The notes beneath the pieces are model-generated. The model saw only the letters and a program-made list of their open reading frames with translations. It searched no databases and was not told the origin of the DNA. This document shows positions 28,151 through 38,614 of a DNA stretch of 56,846 bases, one piece after another. A program made the position numbers and the translations under genes. The stretch spans positions 1-56,846 of the forward strand of contig DVGU01000030.1 of assembly GCA_018712565.1 (NCBI GenBank), written 5' to 3'. Position 1 is the stretch's first letter. Each line of letters starts with the position of its first letter. This DNA comes from Candidatus Faecimonas gallistercoris. GTDB taxonomy: Bacteria > Bacillota_I > Bacilli_A > RF39 > UBA660.

Positions 28151-29042
28151 AATGTTAGGAAGAAGCATTAGAGATGCCTTTAAAAGTGTAATAAGAAACT
28201 TCAGTTTATCATTAGCATCCATCTCTTGTATTACGATTACACTGATTATTGTAGCAATCGCTATTATGGCTTCATTTAATGTTCAAAATTTTACAAAAGA
28301 AATTGAAAAAGATTTAACAATAGTTATCTTTTTGGATAATAATACAACAGAAGACGAAGTATCCGAAATCAAGCAAGAATTAAGAAAAATACCAAATGTT
28401 GATAAAAAAAGCATAGAGTTCGCATCAAAACAAGATGTAAAGGAAAATATGCAAGATGAATCTGAAGTGTTTGACACTGTGTTGGATGAATGGAATGAAG
28501 AAGACAGTCCATTAAAAGATACATTTCAAGTAAAAGTTAAAAATGTAGAACAAATATCTAACACAGCAAAAAGAATAGAAAAAATAGATAAAGTAAATAC
28601 AGTAAGATATGGAGAAGGGATGGTAGATCAAATGGTTAGTGCATTCTCATCTATTGAGAAAGTAACTTATGGAGTCGTTATAGCTTTAGTAATAGTAACA
28701 ATATTCCTAATTATAAATACTATTAAATTAACAATTTCAGCTAGAAGACGAGAAATAGGAATTATGAGATTAGTTGGAGCAAGTAATTTTACAATCAAAA
28801 CACCATTTATTATTGAAGGAATGATTTTGGGTTTATTGGGTTCAATAATTCCAGTACTATTTACAACATATGGATATTTAGCATTTTATAAACATTTTGA
28901 TGGTTATTTATTCACACAATTAATACAATTGATAAAACCAGAACCATTCATATATTCTACAGCTGGAATAGTAGTAATAATAGGTATTTTAGTAGGTATG
29001 GTTGGTAGTGCCAGTGCCGTAAGAAAGTATTTAAAAATATAA
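28137..29042 (+). CDS. ftsX: cell-division permease-like protein FtsX
   Basis: Four TM helices with a large first extracellular loop. Overlaps the ftsE stop. Confidence 0.85.
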   Translation: MKIFRMLGRSIRDAFKSVIRNFSLSLASISCITITLIIVAIAIMASFNVQNFTKEIEKDLTIVIFLDNNTTEDEVSEIKQELRKIPNVDKKSIEFASKQDVKENMQDESEVFDTVLDEWNEEDSPLKDTFQVKVKNVEQISNTAKRIEKIDKVNTVRYGEGMVDQMVSAFSSIEKVTYGVVIALVIVTIFLIINTIKLTISARRREIGIMRLVGASNFTIKTPFIIEGMILGLLGSIIPVLFTTYGYLAFYKHFDGYLFTQLIQLIKPEPFIYSTAGIVVIIGILVGMVGSASAVRKYLKI

Positions 29043-30265
29043 TGAAAAAACATAAAATAATTGCACTTCTAGCGATAACTTCTGTAATAGCATCCTATAT
29101 AATACTACCTATGGATACGAAAGCAGAGGCAACTACACTAGCAGAATTTAGAGCAGAAGTAGAAAAATACACATCAGAGTTAGAAGAAAAACAAAATAAA
29201 GTTGCGAAAAATGATAAAGAAGTGGCTGAGATAAAAGAAAGAATTAATGAGATAGAAAAAGAATTAGATAATATAGTCGATGAAATAAGTACTCTACAAA
29301 CAGAAATAGATGAAAGTAATCAAGAAATTAAGGAAAAAAGTGAAGAAAGTAAAAAAATATTAGAATATTATCAACTTGCAAATGGTGAAAACGCATATCT
29401 AGAGTATGCTTTTGGAGCAACAAGTATAACAGAAATGATTTATCGTATGTCTGTAGTAGAACAATTAACTGAATATAACGATAAAGTAATGAATGAATTA
29501 GATGAATTGATTTCTAAAAATGAAAATCAAAAAAAGGAATTAAAAACAAAACAAGAAAATCAAAAAAATCTTCAAACAGAATTAGAAGAGCAAAGAGAAA
29601 AAATTAATGCTGATACAGCAGCATTAAAAGATGCTATGCCTGGAGTTCAAGATCAAATTGATTCTGCCAAGGAAAGTGTTAAATATTATGAAAGTATTGG
29701 CTGTGGTGAAAATGAAAATATAAATTCATGTCAATTACGTCACGATAGAGCAAATGCATCTAGTGGTGGCGGAAGTGGTTCTGGTGGTGCAGGAAACGTT
29801 ATGCCTCCATCAGCATCAGGATTCTATCGTCCAATGGAAAGTGGATATGTTACACAAAATTGGATGAACTATGGTCATCTTGGAATAGATCTTTCTAATA
29901 GTAATAAAACAATACCAGTATATTCAATCGCTAATGGAGTTGTTTTTGCAAAATATTATGATAATGCTGGCGCTCTAGTATTAAAAATTAGACATTATAC
30001 TGGTGGAAGGTATTTATATTCTACATATGCCCATTTATCTGCATGGTATGTTAATGTAGGTGATATTGTAACATCGAATACAATGATTGGTCGTATGGGA
30101 AATACAGGTAATTCAACAGGAGCTCATCTTCACCTAGAAATTACAACTTGTGATTGGCATGCTGGAGGTGGATGTACCTGGGGAACATATCAAAATAGTA
30201 CTTTAAATCCAAGAAGTTATATTGGATTCCCATCAGGTCTACGTTCATGGTGGTATGGAAGATAA
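29042..30265 (+). CDS. secreted coiled-coil M23/LytM peptidoglycan endopeptidase (EnvC/PcsB-like FtsEX partner architecture)
   Basis: Signal peptide, about 200 aa of heptad-rich coiled coil, G/S linker, intact HLGIDL (HxxxD) and GAHLHLEI (HxH). TAATG overlap with ftsX. Confidence 0.8.
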   Translation: MKKHKIIALLAITSVIASYIILPMDTKAEATTLAEFRAEVEKYTSELEEKQNKVAKNDKEVAEIKERINEIEKELDNIVDEISTLQTEIDESNQEIKEKSEESKKILEYYQLANGENAYLEYAFGATSITEMIYRMSVVEQLTEYNDKVMNELDELISKNENQKKELKTKQENQKNLQTELEEQREKINADTAALKDAMPGVQDQIDSAKESVKYYESIGCGENENINSCQLRHDRANASSGGGSGSGGAGNVMPPSASGFYRPMESGYVTQNWMNYGHLGIDLSNSNKTIPVYSIANGVVFAKYYDNAGALVLKIRHYTGGRYLYSTYAHLSAWYVNVGDIVTSNTMIGRMGNTGNSTGAHLHLEITTCDWHAGGGCTWGTYQNSTLNPRSYIGFPSGLRSWWYGR

Positions 30266-30540
30266 TAAGAAATAACAAAAGGAATAGAACTATGTCTATT
30301 CCTTTTAAAATTTTTATATTTCTTTCTATATAGTAATACAAAACAAATTTTTGTAAAAAAGAAAAAACTAACTTATTAAAATACTATATCTTTCCTAAGG
30401 AAAATTAGTATATCAAAAATAATTAAAAATAAAATATTGTATTTTATGAAATGAAATAGTATGATAAAAATAACAGAAAAGGAATAAAAGGGAATAAATA
30501 AAAAAAACGTCTCAAAATCTAAAGAAAAGGAAAGAAAGTT

Positions 30541-33063
30541 ATGCCAAGAAAAAAAGAAGTAAGAAATGAAAATGAATTTATTGATTCAGTTATTAATGCA
30601 ATTGAAGAAGTAGATACATTAAAAGAATTAGAACAAAAAATAGGAGAAGAGTTAACACCAGAAGTATTATCAAAAATTCGTCATCGTTTTATCACATTAA
30701 GAAAACAAACATTATCATTAGCAAGAACATATAGTACTAGAGGAGATTTAGACCTATCTATAGAACAAAAAGAAAATCTAAAAAATTTAAAAGATTTATT
30801 TGAAAAATTCAAAGATATGAAAAAAAATGAAAATAATAACCAAAAGCAAGAGAAAAAATTATCTTCTAAAAAAACAGTTAGCAAAATAGAATCTAGAAAG
30901 CAAAAAATAATATCTGAAATTGAAAGCATAAATCATTGGATATCATTAGAATCCAAACAACAATTTGCAGAGTATCAACAAAAAAGTATGTATGGGGACC
31001 GCTTAGATATATTAAAAAGGTTAACAACACTATATATTGAGTATATGGAAAAATTAAAAGTATATCAAAAAGAAACCATGGAAGAAATAATGGGAATTGT
31101 AATAGCAAATACAAAGATAGAAGGCAATCGAGCAACCACAAAAAAATTAGTATATGATACTCTAAATACAGAGGCATATAAACCATTTCAAGAAAAAATC
31201 CAATCTTTAATTGAGAAAAATAGAAAAACAAAAAGAATAATCGAAGACTTAAAACGATTACAAAACATAGAAAAAGAAATCATAAAACCTTATATGTATC
31301 CAGAACTTACTAATGAAGATTTAATAGAAAAACGTAAATATATAAGTCCTAAAAATGATATTGAGAAACAGTATCAACAACTTTTAAAAGGAATTATTTC
31401 AAGAAGATACGTAAAACAGTATAAAGATAAATTAAAGCAAGGACTTCCAGAAGAAATTAATGAAATGTTAGAAAGTTTTCAAAATTTACCTCCATACGAA
31501 TTAGAATCACTAATTGCCTTAGCAACAGATATTATAAAAAATAAAAGAAATAGAATTAAAAAAGGTTTTAGTGAAACAGGTGATTTAGAAAGAGATTTTC
31601 TAAAGAAACTTATAGATGAACTGAAGAAAATGCGTCCTATATATTATGAAGATGACGAAGACACTAGAGTGTATTATGATATATTAGATGTATTAATGCA
31701 AGACGATCGTAACTATAACTATATTAAAGAGTTATTAGAAATAGATGAATTTCGACGAGCTAGACAAGTATATAAAACTAGAGGAGGAAGACAAAAAAAC
31801 ACTAAAAAAGAACATATATTATTATTAGTATTGGATAATTTTATAAAAAATTATAAATTAAAACTAGTAAACCAAAATATAGAATACATAGAACCATCCT
31901 ATTATAAAGAAATAATAAAGTTATTTATTGAAAAACAACCAAACCTATATCCAGAAGAACTAGAAGAATATAGTCAAAGAATAGAAGAATTTAGAGATTA
32001 TATAAAAAATAAGAAGTATCATACTACAACCAATGTATTAAACGATATAGATGAAATAAGTAATTTTCATCCAGAGATACAATCAACACCAAAAGAAGAA
32101 AAAGAAAACCAGAAATTAAATCAAAATAGAAAAAAAGTTTATCAAGAATGTTTAAAATATGGAGTTTTAAAAAATAGAAAAAATGGAGTGATAGAGTATT
32201 ACCCTACAGAGACAACAAAAACATTTCAAATTCAAGGAACAACACCTTATGCCTTTTCTTTAAGATATTTACAAGATGGAAGACAAATGATAGGAGTTCA
32301 TATACTAGATACATCAAAGATAACTCAAGAATTAGATTTTTTAAATCAAGAACTACAACAAGGTAAGGTAAAATTACCAACTTTTAACCAAGAACAAACT
32401 TATCCAACTATCTCTATCCAAGGAATAATAGGATATAATAATGAAATAACTGATGAAAAAATAATGTCATCAAATATTAAAATTGATACTTACTATACCA
32501 AGGAAGATTTAGAGCATTATAAAATGATACCAGAATTAAAAGAAATGAGAAACTGGTTATATATTATCCAAAATAAATTAGATATAACTGAAAATGGAAT
32601 AAAAAATATAGTAAATAATTATCTATCAGAAGTAATATCTGAAAATTTTCAAACAGAAGGGATACCATTTATATATAAAACATCACTACCGCAAATGGAT
32701 AAGTTAATAGTAAAAAACCATAATGATACTTGTGTACTTCTTTCTAAAATGCCTAAAAAAACAGCTCATCAAATATATGATATCCTAGACTCTCAACAGG
32801 CAGGAGTTTACTATACACCTGAAAATATAAATGATGCTAAAATAGATTTAAGACCAGATACAGAATTAGGAGTATATTTGTTAACAACACTAAATAAAAT
32901 AAATGCAGGAAGATATAACCCAGATATAGCCCAGGAAGAAATAAAGAATTTATTAACAAAATATAATGATCAGAGTGAATATCTACCTCCTATTATTACA
33001 GAAAAAAATGATAAAAAAGTAAATCAAATGGTAAAAAAATATCAAAAAGTAGCACAAGGATAA
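30541..33063 (+). CDS. large K/E-rich hypothetical protein; the C-terminal ~280 aa resemble a degenerate RNB (RNase II/R) domain
   Basis: 840-aa uninterrupted ORF with an AAGGAAAG SD. IGVHILDTSK resembles the RNB motif GVHIADVS. The preceding Asp cluster is absent (TTPYAFSL). Confidence 0.6.
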   Translation: MPRKKEVRNENEFIDSVINAIEEVDTLKELEQKIGEELTPEVLSKIRHRFITLRKQTLSLARTYSTRGDLDLSIEQKENLKNLKDLFEKFKDMKKNENNNQKQEKKLSSKKTVSKIESRKQKIISEIESINHWISLESKQQFAEYQQKSMYGDRLDILKRLTTLYIEYMEKLKVYQKETMEEIMGIVIANTKIEGNRATTKKLVYDTLNTEAYKPFQEKIQSLIEKNRKTKRIIEDLKRLQNIEKEIIKPYMYPELTNEDLIEKRKYISPKNDIEKQYQQLLKGIISRRYVKQYKDKLKQGLPEEINEMLESFQNLPPYELESLIALATDIIKNKRNRIKKGFSETGDLERDFLKKLIDELKKMRPIYYEDDEDTRVYYDILDVLMQDDRNYNYIKELLEIDEFRRARQVYKTRGGRQKNTKKEHILLLVLDNFIKNYKLKLVNQNIEYIEPSYYKEIIKLFIEKQPNLYPEELEEYSQRIEEFRDYIKNKKYHTTTNVLNDIDEISNFHPEIQSTPKEEKENQKLNQNRKKVYQECLKYGVLKNRKNGVIEYYPTETTKTFQIQGTTPYAFSLRYLQDGRQMIGVHILDTSKITQELDFLNQELQQGKVKLPTFNQEQTYPTISIQGIIGYNNEITDEKIMSSNIKIDTYYTKEDLEHYKMIPELKEMRNWLYIIQNKLDITENGIKNIVNNYLSEVISENFQTEGIPFIYKTSLPQMDKLIVKNHNDTCVLLSKMPKKTAHQIYDILDSQQAGVYYTPENINDAKIDLRPDTELGVYLLTTLNKINAGRYNPDIAQEEIKNLLTKYNDQSEYLPPIITEKNDKKVNQMVKKYQKVAQG

Positions 33064-33082
33064 CGATAAATAATTAATAAAT

Positions 33083-33117
33083 AAAAATTAGACTTTAAAA
33101 TCAGAGGTCTAATTTTT
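33083..33117. terminator. bidirectional terminator
   Basis: AAAAATTAGAC / GTCTAATTTTT stem. Confidence 0.65.
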
Positions 33118-33126
33118 AACTTTTTA

Positions 33127-34157
33127 TTAAAACAAAGTAATTTTAACAGTATCTAAAGGATAACAATTTGGATTTTGTATTAAGGCATGTATAGTCTTTT
33201 TTAATTCCGAAGAATCGATATTAGGTAATGTTATTTTATCAAAATATAAATCCTCTGTAATAGAAAGTAAATGAGAAAAAATATAGTATTTCGCAACAGA
33301 TAACTTAAAATTAGTAAATACATAATCATAATAAGAAATATATTTTTTTAATACTTCATCTTCAGGAATATTTATTATCCTATCACGATATAAGTAAGAT
33401 ATCTTTGCCCATTTTTGGCTACAGATTTTACAGCATCAATACCACAAGTTTTTAAAATCTATAAAATTTGTTTAGAAGCCTTAAAATATTTTGCCAATAT
33501 ATTCATCTTGACAATTACCACGACTAAAAGATAACCAATTTTAAATACAAATATCATCAATGAAGTGATATTTTAATAAAAAATAGAGTCCTAAAAAATC
33601 AGCAATCGCTTCTTCACAAACAGGAGCGGTAGATATTTGTTCCTCTTTTTAGGAACTAATTCTTCAATAACATAATGCATTAATTCATGAGCTAGCATAA
33701 TTTCAGAAATTCCATGTGCAGTATATTTTTCTAATAAATAAATATCTTTTTGACAATGATAATATTGAGCTTGATATTCATTAAAATTCATAGCTTTAAA
33801 GTTAGACTTTTCAAAAGGATGTGGAAAAGAGTCTACAATTTGAATATTAGGTTTATCATAATTTGTTAATTGGAATTCCTCATAAAAGCAATCAATCATT
33901 TCCAAAAATAGCACATAAAAATTATCTTTTTCCATTGTAACAAAGTTTTTCTTAGAAGTTAAAGAAAGAAAAGAATTTCGCATAAGATTAATCTGTTCTT
34001 TCAAAAATTGCTGTTGAATAGCATCTAAATTCTTAGTAATTGGTTTCCCATCATCATCAATATATTTAAATATTTCATCGATTTGAGCAAATTTAGGATG
34101 ATTTAAATAATATACACCAATTAATAATTTATTCTTTTCTAGCATAATAAAATTCAC
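33127..34157 (-). pseudogene. HExxH (zinc metallopeptidase-like) gene disrupted by several frameshifts
   Basis: The intact 188-aa N-terminal ORF (33591-34157) ends just after AHELMHY. Protein-like reading continues in other frames (..APVCEEAIADFLG.., ..RDRIINIPEDEVLKKYISYYDYVF..) down to about 33127. Confidence 0.5.
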
Positions 34158-34337
34158 TTTCTTTAGTATATTGTATCATAAAAAAATAAAAGGGTTGTAA
34201 ATTCAAATAATTATTACTTCTAACTGAATCATTATAATTAATAATAAAAATAGAATGTTGAGAAGAAAAGATAACTAAAGAAAGTTACGTGTACTTAATT
34301 ATTTTAATCTGTTAGAATAAATTTGTGTGGTGATAAA

Positions 34338-35051
34338 ATGAAAGTACAGATTTTAGGAACAGGAGCGATATACTCAAAAAGAAATTGTGCTAGTTTAATA
34401 ATTGATAAAAAGATTTTATTTGATATTGGTCCTGGAACAATAAAACAATTATTAAAAGAAAATTATGATTTAAAAGAAATTAATACTATATTAATATCTC
34501 ATCTTCATTCAGATCATATCTTAGATTTTCCAATATTTATAGTTAATTTAGAAGTTTTAAATATAAATCACAAAGTAAGAGTTATAGGACCAGTTAACAT
34601 GAAAGAAAAATTATTAAAACTATTAGAGCTGATGTATGGTAATTATTTCGATAATTTTATAAATAAAAACTTTGAATTTATCGAAGTAAAAGAAAACAAC
34701 TATGATATTCTTTATAATAACTATAAAATTAATATGTTAAAAGTTAATCATGAAGGTATTGAAGCATATGGCTTTATAATTAATGATAAACTAGGTTTAA
34801 CTGGAGATAGTTCAATTTGTGATGGTGTTCAAGAAATCTTTAGCAATAGTAAAGTAATAGTAGCAGATTGTTCTTTAATAAAAGGGGATAATTACCATAT
34901 GGGATTTAATGATATAAAGAACCTGTTAAAAGAAAATAAAGAAAAAATAGTAATGGCAACTCATTTAAGAGATGATACGAGAGAGTTATTAGTAGCTAAA
35001 AAAATAAAAAATTTTAATGTTGTAGAAGATGGTTATTATTTTGATATTTAG
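34338..35051 (+). CDS. MBL-fold metallo-hydrolase
   Basis: ISHLHSDH (HxHxDH) motif. ATG 34338 is preferred over the upstream TTG. Confidence 0.7.
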   Translation: MKVQILGTGAIYSKRNCASLIIDKKILFDIGPGTIKQLLKENYDLKEINTILISHLHSDHILDFPIFIVNLEVLNINHKVRVIGPVNMKEKLLKLLELMYGNYFDNFINKNFEFIEVKENNYDILYNNYKINMLKVNHEGIEAYGFIINDKLGLTGDSSICDGVQEIFSNSKVIVADCSLIKGDNYHMGFNDIKNLLKENKEKIVMATHLRDDTRELLVAKKIKNFNVVEDGYYFDI

Positions 35052-35061
35052 GAGGAAGATT

Positions 35062-35532
35062 ATGCTAGAAAAATTAAAAGAAAAATATATATTTTTTGAT
35101 GTTGATGGAACATTATCAGAGTATAGATACAATGATAAATTATATAGTGGTGCATGTCCTGAACTAGGATGCCAAACTTTAGAAGATTTATTATTTTCTA
35201 ATCTTTTCTCTAAAGCAAGACCCTTAAAAACAATGCAAAAGATAGTTAGTAATCTAGATTCTAATAAAGTATTTGTATTAGGAACAATAGTAACAAATAA
35301 TGAAATAGAACAAAAATATTCTTGGTTAAAAAAGAATTATTCTACTATTAAAAAAGAAAATATTTGTTTTATTTCAAATACAATGTTAAAACCAGAAGTA
35401 ATAATAGAGTATTGTAAACACTTAAATATTAAGAAAGAGGATGTAGTTTTTGTAGATGATAGATTAGATATCTTAAGAAAAGCAGAAGAACTAGGAATAA
35501 CTTCATATCACCCAAGTTCTTTTATGGAGTAA
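35062..35532 (+). CDS. HAD-superfamily hydrolase (nucleotidase-like)
   Basis: FFDVDGTL (DxDxT) motif and late VDDR. ATG 35062 follows an AGGAGG SD. Confidence 0.6.
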   Translation: MLEKLKEKYIFFDVDGTLSEYRYNDKLYSGACPELGCQTLEDLLFSNLFSKARPLKTMQKIVSNLDSNKVFVLGTIVTNNEIEQKYSWLKKNYSTIKKENICFISNTMLKPEVIIEYCKHLNIKKEDVVFVDDRLDILRKAEELGITSYHPSSFME

Positions 35533-35826
35533 AAATAAAATATATAATAATTAAAATAAATATAGCTGCTTTGAATAGAAATTTTACTATTTCTAGATTT
35601 ATTAAGTAAGGTAGGAAAAATATCACGAAATAACGCACTTTCCCTTTCTTGTTTTATAGAAAAATAAGTGTTAAAATATGTTAATAAAAAACATCTAGTA
35701 TTATGAAGTAATTGTGACTGAGATTCGTATTTATTCGTTTTCAAAAAATGGTATTAAAAGAATACGACTTTTTCAACTAAGAAAACAAAATATTTAGTTG
35801 AACATGGTCATAGTAAGGAGGTCAAA

Positions 35827-37780: not shown

Positions 37781-38614
37781 ATGGACAAGTATAAAAAAGT
37801 CTATATTGAAATCACGAATTGCTGTAATCTAAATTGTTCTTTCTGTTCAACTGTTACAAAAGATAAGCGCTTTATGACAGAGCCAGAGTTTGAACATATT
37901 CTAAAAGAAGTATCTAAAGTGACAAAAGTTATCTATCTTCATGTGAAGGGAGAACCATTACTGCATCCTAAAATAATAAAGTTTCTAGAGTTAGCAGAAA
38001 AGTACAACTTAAACGTAAATATCACAACCAATGGAACATTATTTCCAAAGTTAGTAGATAAATTAAAAAACTGTAAAGCTCTACATAAGATAAATTTTTC
38101 TCTTCATTGTGAACAAAATAATACAACCTATGAAGAAGAAATATTTAAGAATGTGGAAAAGTTATCCGCAGATACTGTGATTATTTATCGTTTATGGACA
38201 TTAAAAGATAATAAACTAGATAAAAAATCCACAAAAGTAGTGGAAAAATTAAAAGATTATTATCATTTATCCACAGGAACAGTGGAAAAACTACAAAATG
38301 AAAACAATGTAAAAATATCATCCACAATATATGTGGATAAAGACAATGAATTTATCTGGCCAGAAATTACAAATCACAAAAGTTGTGGATATTGTCACGC
38401 ACTAAAAACACAACTCGCAATTTTATCAGATGGAACAGTAGTACCGTGTTGTCTTGACAGTAATGGTATAATTAATTTAGGAAATATATTTAAAAAATCC
38501 ATAGAAGAAATACAAAATACAAAAAGATACCAAAAACTAAAAAAGTCTTTTCAAGATAGAAAGCCATCAGAAGAACTATGCAAATCTTGTACTTTTAAAG
38601 AAAAAAATAATTAA
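37781..38614 (+). CDS. radical SAM protein with a SPASM-like C-terminal Cys cluster
   Basis: CCNLNCSFC (CxxxCxxC) at residues 14-22. C-terminal CGYC...CC...C..C. The ATG lies 1 nt after the uvrB stop. Confidence 0.75.
   Translation: MDKYKKVYIEITNCCNLNCSFCSTVTKDKRFMTEPEFEHILKEVSKVTKVIYLHVKGEPLLHPKIIKFLELAEKYNLNVNITTNGTLFPKLVDKLKNCKALHKINFSLHCEQNNTTYEEEIFKNVEKLSADTVIIYRLWTLKDNKLDKKSTKVVEKLKDYYHLSTGTVEKLQNENNVKISSTIYVDKDNEFIWPEITNHKSCGYCHALKTQLAILSDGTVVPCCLDSNGIINLGNIFKKSIEEIQNTKRYQKLKKSFQDRKPSEELCKSCTFKEKNN

Follow-up and report, generated by a model that had tools for sequence, protein, structure and literature searches.

The 56,846-nt stretch of contig DVGU01000030.1 from Candidatus Faecimonas gallistercoris analysed here (the window) carries a gene, referred to as P0001, whose 840-residue product is a member of the RNB (RNase II/R) superfamily by fold and by sequence profile. 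The key features of RNB catalysis are missing from the protein, which is very probably a non-catalytic representative of the fold. The gene and the portion of it that carries the fold are located as follows.

30541-33063, forward strand: open reading frame (ORF) P0001, 840 codons, uninterrupted; predicted pseudo-RNB protein.
32146-33039, forward strand: residues ~536-833 of P0001; shortened RNB (RNase II/R) fold that lacks the catalytic apparatus, from Foldseek and hhalign.

The strongest resemblance to RNB proteins is structural. A model of P0001 built with AlphaFold2 (AF2) from a 19-sequence alignment has a mean predicted local distance difference test (pLDDT) score of 79, with values of ~70-94 per 10-residue block over residues 531-840. 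When this model was compared with the PDB by Foldseek, the top 40 matches were all RNB proteins (E 7.8e-9 to 1.5e-4), and the next match had an E value of 0.09. Among the RNB matches are RNase R (8cdu, E 7.8e-9), the yeast pseudonuclease Ssd1 (7am1, E 3e-7), DIS3/Rrp44, Dis3L2, RNase II and the RNase R of M. genitalium. The sequence signal is fainter and emerges in steps. No Pfam or NCBIfam model matched P0001, the sole chance match being to Malic_M (E 0.096), and a phmmer search of PDB sequences with the protein returned nothing useful. A genus-level HMMER profile gave a weak match to B. subtilis RNase R among PDB sequences (8cdu, E 1.3), which falls on the motif II and PFIY blocks, in the same order in both proteins; in a BLASTP comparison with the genome's own RNase R, the best segment is the AFSLRYLQDGRQMIGVHILDTS block (E 0.01). 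When the C-terminal part was compared, profile against profile, with 30 RNase R sequences of the same class, the genus profile reached 58%, and a significant link to RNase R needed the broad 61-sequence family profile used in profile-versus-profile mode (hhalign probability 96.3%, E 1.6e-9, extendable to 288 columns). In addition, one family member, P0074, clears the cut-off of the Pfam RNB model (PF00773) with 50.7 bits against the 29.3 required. The isoelectric point (pI) and Arg content of the C-terminal domain provide no separation from real RNB domains.

The preliminary description of this DNA, made from the letters alone, had proposed a C-terminal RNB domain on the basis of three short line-ups with RNase R. 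The domain itself withstood both the profile and the structure searches, either of which could have spoken against it. So did two of the line-ups: that of AFSLRYLQDGRQMIGVHILDTS with the ...GVHIADVS segment of RNase R recurs in BLASTP, in the HMMER match to 8cdu and in hhalign, and that of IPFIYK(T) with PFIYRVH recurs in the same three kinds of comparison. The third, which paired GRYNPD with RRYPD, did not recur: in hhalign, motif IV either falls at T775-Y779 or is deleted.

Comparison with RNase R and RNase II (PF00773; 8cdu and E. coli RNase II, 2ix0), which possess the same catalytic-domain fold with motif II (GVHI.D.S) and PFIY in the same order, delineates what is retained in P0001.

32221-32265, forward strand: remnant of motif I, TFQIQGTTPYAFSLR, from the alignments.
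32290-32316, forward strand: remnant of motif II, IGVHILDTS, corresponding to GVHIADVS; when the broad family is aligned, D590 never varies and H587 almost never.
32665-32676, forward strand: PFIY, which aligns with PFIYR(V)H in RNase R; conservation of P709 and Y712 is 90% or more.
32716-32769, forward strand: family-specific block NHNxTCxxLSKxPKKxAH, which has no counterpart in RNase R.

Within the last of these, N726, H727, N728, A742 and H743 are invariant in the genus, and across the broad family the block is a majority consensus only. Unlike RNase R and RNase II, P0001 lacks a Pfam match, three of the four motif-I aspartates, motif III, the motif-IV arginine, both cold-shock domains (CSD1 and CSD2) and the S1 domain. 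In the numbering of E. coli RNase II, D201 corresponds to Q565, D207 falls in a 4-residue deletion, D209 corresponds to P569 and D210 to Y570. At position 565, where P0001 has Gln, 90% or more of the genus homologues have Glu, and the DxDD cluster is found in none of the 61 family representatives. Neither the block equivalent to motif III (SxYL...PMLP...SL), which is deleted, nor GHxGL is retained, and the region of the motif-IV arginines (TSPIRRY; R500 of RNase II) is either deleted or replaced by T775-E776-L-G777. If GRYNPD is paired with this motif instead, the arginine concerned, R791, is not conserved, such that neither alignment provides a conserved Arg. The earlier claim that the catalytic Asp cluster and the conserved Arg have been replaced is consistent with these alignments, in which both are gone. 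No Pfam match, to CSD or S1 included, was obtained for P0001 or its 18 aligned homologues (19 members in all). Ahead of the RNB domain the AF2 model contains no beta structure except a single hairpin (residues 408-425), and the tail beyond residue 775 is helical. With three of the four Asp positions of motif I lost, together with motif III and the arginines of motif IV, P0001 is predicted to be incapable of degrading RNA by the RNB mechanism, in keeping with the recommendation that an RNase II homologue without these residues be assumed to be a pseudonuclease (PMC8097288).

About 530 residues of helical sequence lie ahead of the RNB domain, and these can be divided into two main parts.

30541-31395, forward strand: residues 1-285; K/E-rich, basic (pI 9.3), long helices (AF2 helices 40-67, 70-130, 151-193 and 211-251).
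31585-32085, forward strand: residues ~349-515; conserved helical domain with one beta-hairpin, common to the dnaI-linked RNB-only paralogues described below.

The large charged N-terminal domain of the preliminary description is thereby partly upheld: the region is helical, basic and, as had been noted, K/E-rich (12.4% K and 10.5% E over the whole protein), but it consists of a coiled-coil extension followed by a conserved helical domain that is inherited from an RNB-only paralogue. In relatives at the level of Candidatus Onthousia, the match to P0001 begins only at residue 237-278. A separate AF2 model of residues 285-535 has a pLDDT of 81; its best Foldseek match in the PDB has an E value of 0.63, and the fold is not assignable. 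The helical domain is thus unannotated and has no solved relative.

The origin of this arrangement is found in a second set of RNB matches in sister genera. These are proteins of 557-682 amino acids (aa) in which a helical N-terminal half precedes the RNB domain and OB folds are absent; Pfam sees the RNB part only.

L081, L083-L093, L072 and L073 (loci in sister genera): dnaI-linked RNB-only proteins, without CSD or S1 and with the catalytic motifs mostly intact.

The RNB-only paralogues are present in 11 of 150 genera of the bacterial family; in 13 of 15 loci the gene immediately follows dnaI, and it precedes thrS wherever the flank reaches that far. Most of them retain TID...(I/L)DD and TSP(I/L)RR, and a few (x061, L082) are partly degenerate. 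A search of single paralogue sequences with the genus-level HMMER profile (A1) was not significant, and a large protein search with the N-terminal half of an intact paralogue (x073) found only two relatives. Profile comparison by hhalign aligns residues 360-515 of the P0001 family with the N-terminal domain of the paralogues at 97.3% probability (E 2.5e-11), against control values of E 0.22 with RNase R and E 0.11 with a column-reversed alignment. Over their full length the two families align across 440 columns (99.3%, E 1.7e-20), and the RNB part of the P0001 family is closer to the paralogues (98.1%, E 1.1e-13) than to RNase R (E 1.6e-9). Since both the helical domain and the RNB part are linked to the RNB-only proteins in this way, the P0001 family is, as judged from these profiles, a dead offshoot of the RNB-only lineage with an added coiled-coil N-terminus. 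The two families occupy the same bacterial family and share a two-domain core, helical plus RNB, without OB folds; unlike the dnaI-linked proteins (e.g., L081, P0081), the P0001 family lacks intact motifs, bears the extra coiled coil, and is located between pcsB and uvrB rather than after dnaI. Both kinds coexist in one genome, G436 (L081 after dnaI, L062 elsewhere), and they are therefore paralogues.

Related observations come from single genomes. The Candidatus Faecimonas gallistercoris assembly containing the window has no RNB gene between dnaI and thrS and no second Pfam-RNB match; its dnaI-thrS interval (L098, G000:C7:25500-32400) instead holds a second M23-type peptidase (266 aa), an opposite-strand ORF of 298 aa and an ORF of 165 aa. 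A weak match of the paralogue N-terminal domain in the same genome (C39) proved spurious, being a P-type ATPase. Genome G437, of 1.4 Mb, contains four RNB-family genes (L065, L079, L080 and L082), namely RNase R, a second RNase R-like protein of 777 aa, a partly degenerate RNB-only protein of ~570 aa (in a frame of 580 codons) and a member of the dead family.

Taken with its genomic setting, this architecture is reasonably well accounted for if P0001 is a paralogue-derived, non-catalytic RNB protein that probably acts by binding and is encoded by an accessory gene. Its ancestor was a lineage-specific RNB-only paralogue, with a helical N-terminal domain and an RNB domain but no cold-shock or S1 domain. 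The branch leading to P0001 lost motif III, the arginines of motif IV and three of the four aspartates that make up the Mg-binding cluster of motif I, and gained an N-terminal coiled-coil extension that varies in length across the family and measures about 350 residues here. The conserved helical domain could combine with what is left of the RNB body into a binding module for an RNA or protein partner, with the coiled coil serving in oligomerisation or scaffolding. The gene itself is an accessory one, monocistronic and fast-evolving under moderate purifying selection, repeatedly lost, and not of the housekeeping type. Action by binding rather than cutting is most likely, and the nature of the ligand is likewise something we infer. 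That the protein is specifically an RNA-binding regulator is possible but on balance doubtful; with the OB folds and motif III missing, any RNA would have to be bound by the helical domain, by the basic coiled coil or by what remains of the RNB surface.

Several observations weigh against this interpretation. The Foldseek alignments have a high root-mean-square deviation, about 10 Å, because the query was the entire 840-residue model. The classical RNA-binding parts (CSD1/2, S1 and motif III) are all missing, which leaves RNA binding without assurance. The gene has no conserved partner that would point to a pathway, and its neighbours outside the genus differ: a CotF gene and an ABC-FtsX fusion at one locus (L069), and Tex, Crp and NrdD at another (L062). 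Finally, H587 and D590 are conserved, as are E565, E568, N726-H727-N728 and H743 within the genus, and from such residues a new active site might be assembled. Conceivably, then, the protein could still be an enzyme in which a centre built from H587/D590, E565/E568 and N726-H727-N728/H743 replaces the Asp cluster. The residues in question are invariant or nearly so in the genus, and H587 and D590 are conserved family-wide; the latter two are, however, the inherited RNB motif II, P0001 itself carries Q565 and T568 in place of the Glu residues of its relatives, H727 and H743 are lost in several distant members, and the substrate-holding motifs III and IV are deleted. An enzymatic role of this kind is accordingly regarded as very improbable.

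P0001 is not the orphan that it was first taken to be, a term that proved inexact. A word-indexed search recovered 20 full-length homologues with 37-46% identity, and an exhaustive phmmer search of 1.8 billion cluster representatives recovered 61 at E <= 0.001, none with a name or a Pfam domain, such that the family comprises at least 61 clusters at 50% identity. Where genome records match, the hosts are uncultured Bacilli, ‘Mycoplasmatota’ or ‘Tenericutes’, represented by metagenome-assembled genomes (MAGs) from the gut. Named relatives include Candidatus Faecimonas intestinavium (39% identity) and Candidatus Onthousia (33%, over residues 278-836 only). Within the genus, the gene is present in 17 of 20 other genomes, full-length and without stops. 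A class-wide genome search with a long profile (A2), which scored few candidates per genome, found only the genome of the window itself, plus weak matches in ORFs of ~620-740 aa that are probably RNase R; a shorter profile (A3) was more informative and placed the helical middle domain in 7 of 150 other genera of the same GTDB family. The genome of the window, a 1.29-Mb assembly, carries a normal RNase R elsewhere alongside P0001, and its RNA-decay set of RNase R, RNase Y, PNPase and two RNase J is the usual one for Bacillota. Because these enzymes are all in place, P0001 fills in for no missing RNA-decay function.

The gene stands as a unit of its own within the window, and the following elements flank it.

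30266-30540, forward strand: upstream region of 275 nt, AT-rich, with the ribosome-binding-like run AAAGGAAAG at 30526-34.
30277-30306, either strand: terminator-like hairpin on both strands (-13.5 kcal/mol, z = -4.4) that closes the ftsE-ftsX-pcsB(M23) unit and separates P0001 from it.
33074-33130, either strand: AT-rich hairpin, probable terminator of P0001 on both strands (-16.4 kcal/mol, z = -6.3 versus shuffles), with an A-run 5′ and a U-run 3′.

The M23/PcsB gene ends with a stop at 30265, and the 275-nt gap separates it from the ATG of P0001; AAAGGAAAG, a Shine-Dalgarno-like run, ends 6 nt ahead of this ATG. GC content is 0.28 across 30000-30499. A promoter scan gave 27 promoter-like matches where shuffled sequences led to an expectation of 24.5, which is no excess, and no promoter was located in the upstream region. 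The downstream hairpin was missed by a simple consensus terminator scan owing to its AT-rich stem. Since terminator-like hairpins bound both sides, P0001 is best viewed as a separate unit. In these respects, the preliminary description was accurate: its long uninterrupted frame, AT-rich upstream region of 275 nt and bidirectional terminator all correspond to what is observed.

Within the genus, P0001 always lies between ftsEX-pcsB and uvrB in the loci that reach those genes. The ~5-kb segment that had been described as interrupting the ftsEX-uvrB backbone corresponds to a slot of variable content between pcsB and uvrB, of which P0001 is the most constant occupant (window compared with L001, L004, L095 and L096). 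In the window, the slot (30266-35826) also contains an MBL-fold gene, a HAD gene and a truncated HExxH ORF; in L001 it contains Hydrolase_3, a GT8 glycosyltransferase and genes of no assigned function, and in L004, DUF2975, an HTH protein, DUF4153 and Sua5. On the far side of uvrB, a radical SAM/SPASM gene (window 37781-38614; L001, L004, L049 and others) follows directly in every genus locus that reaches there, at 76-86% identity. On the near side, PcsB (M23, window 29042-30265; orthologues in L001-L061) is 47-79% identical to the window copy, next to FtsE and FtsX at 86-97%; its ratio of nonsynonymous to synonymous substitution rates (dN/dS) is 0.03-0.06 in close pairs and 0.2-0.4 in distant ones, as if there were distinct allelic types.

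This location bears on the alternative that P0001 is a scaffold or cytoskeleton-like coiled-coil protein, in which the dead RNB body would be a protein-interaction module of the division/envelope or RNA-decay machinery that makes no contact with nucleic acid. The long helices of residues 1-285 and the loss of the RNA-gripping elements are compatible with such a role, as are the conserved place beside ftsEX-pcsB in the genus loci reaching those genes and the similarly fast evolution of the neighbouring PcsB. The ftsEX-pcsB linkage nevertheless fails outside the genus (L069, L062), the gene resides in its own terminator-bounded unit, and the strongest constraint falls not on the coiled coil but on the helical domain that is common to predicted active nucleases. 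A pure scaffold is thus considered unlikely, though it is the foremost of the rival explanations.

The sequence of P0001 changes rapidly relative to its surroundings. Compared with the window copy, the gene product is 36-42% identical where UvrB is 93-98%, FtsE 95-97% and FtsX 86-97% identical, and among the relatives' own loci it reaches about 51% in divergent pairs. In unsaturated pairs (synonymous distance, dS, 0.3-0.8), dN/dS is 0.18-0.28 for P0001, against 0.01-0.02 for UvrB, 0.05-0.12 for FtsX and 0.03-0.06 for PcsB. The ratio is alike across the three regions of the protein, and at the scale of 40-codon windows it is lowest in the helical domain (361-500) and in RNB blocks around ~561-580 and 701-740. 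No other part of the protein is as constrained as the helical domain (mostly 0.04-0.25 in unsaturated pairs). The linkers at ~81-140 and 501-560 are near neutral, with ratios close to 1 in the windows starting at 81 and 101 in the pair L052-L053 and in that starting at 81 in L050-L053; outside the linkers, values near or above 1 occur in single pairs only, at the C-terminal tail.

Such divergence might reflect an arms race, in which case P0001 would be a conflict-related accessory protein of phage defence or counter-defence, perhaps a decoy or sensor derived from a nuclease fold. Consistent with this are the 36-51% identity of P0001 where UvrB, FtsE and FtsX retain 86-99%, the variable content of the slot in which it sits, its patchy distribution (7 of 150 other genera of the family) and its repeated loss. 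However, P0001 had no match in PADLOC, in PHROGs or in a tblastn search of 50,697 phage records, and the four family members scanned had matches at chance level only. The gene stands alone without partner genes, its synteny is stable rather than mobile, and no 40-codon window has a dN/dS clearly above 1 except in low-complexity linkers and, in single pairs only, the poorly conserved C-terminal tail. A role in conflict therefore seems improbable, more so than a scaffolding one.

Occasional loss of the gene raises the further alternative that P0001 is decaying and has no function. The slot lacks the gene in G005 and in G014, a 92%-complete genome in which pcsB and uvrB are 1.2 kb apart and the slot is almost empty, and in G019 it is present only in broken form, as fragments with stop codons. 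The G019 remains (G019:C30:1597-2439) consist of four fragments with TGA, TAG and TAA stops in a 63%-complete MAG, and may be a pseudogene or an assembly artefact. Loss in two species, breakage in one and fast evolution are what decay would produce; on the other side, intact full-length frames persist in 17 of 20 genus genomes and in further genera despite >50% divergence, with dN/dS about 0.2 and down to 0.04-0.15 in several windows of the domain core. Decay is disfavoured to the point of being scarcely credible, and P0001 is a real gene, under selection, yet dispensable.

A more specific version of the non-catalytic interpretation draws on the position of the intact paralogues. P0001 could be the neo-functionalised, non-catalytic descendant of an RNB nuclease with a tie to the replication-restart operon dnaB-dnaI. 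Through the conserved helical domain and the dead RNB body it would hold nucleic-acid 3′ ends or a protein partner, be it RNase R, the active paralogue or a factor of replication or repair, and behave as a regulator or antagonist. This proposal is rather unlikely.

The nearest described analogues of P0001 are Ssd1 and Zam, both of which keep a CSD, unlike the P0001 family. Ssd1 and Sts5 are fungal RNase II-family pseudonucleases (PDB 7am1) with the RNB fold in common and the catalytic residues lost, and Ssd1 sets the precedent of an RNB protein acting by binding (PMC8934651, PMC8097288). Ssd1 retains its CSDs and binds RNA through them (PMC8934651); P0001, by comparison, has neither CSD nor S1, is of independent bacterial origin, and is only a putative binder of RNA. 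Zam is an RNB-family protein of cyanobacteria whose canonical active site is degenerate and whose phenotype is not a housekeeping one; it retains a CSD1 carrying functionally essential redox cysteines (PMC9145284). The P0001 family differs from it in the absence of a CSD, in its N-terminus and in phylum. Inactive RNase II-family proteins have been well studied only in fungi (Ssd1), and Zam is the one described bacterial case found.

The practical weight of the P0001 family is limited by its uncultured hosts, by the dispensability of the gene and by a function that is predicted only. Its biological interest lies in what appears to be a different route to a dead RNB protein, in which an RNB-only enzyme, its OB folds already swapped for a helical domain, loses motifs I, III and IV and adds a coiled coil. 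Motif-keeping paralogues, partly degenerate forms and dead members, sometimes together in one genome of 1.3-1.5 Mb, form a natural series in which a post-catalytic role of the RNB domain may be followed. Should P0001 indeed be a regulator or antagonist of the kind outlined above, it would represent a bacterial pseudo-enzyme whose role differs from that of Ssd1, operating in gut bacteria with reduced genomes.

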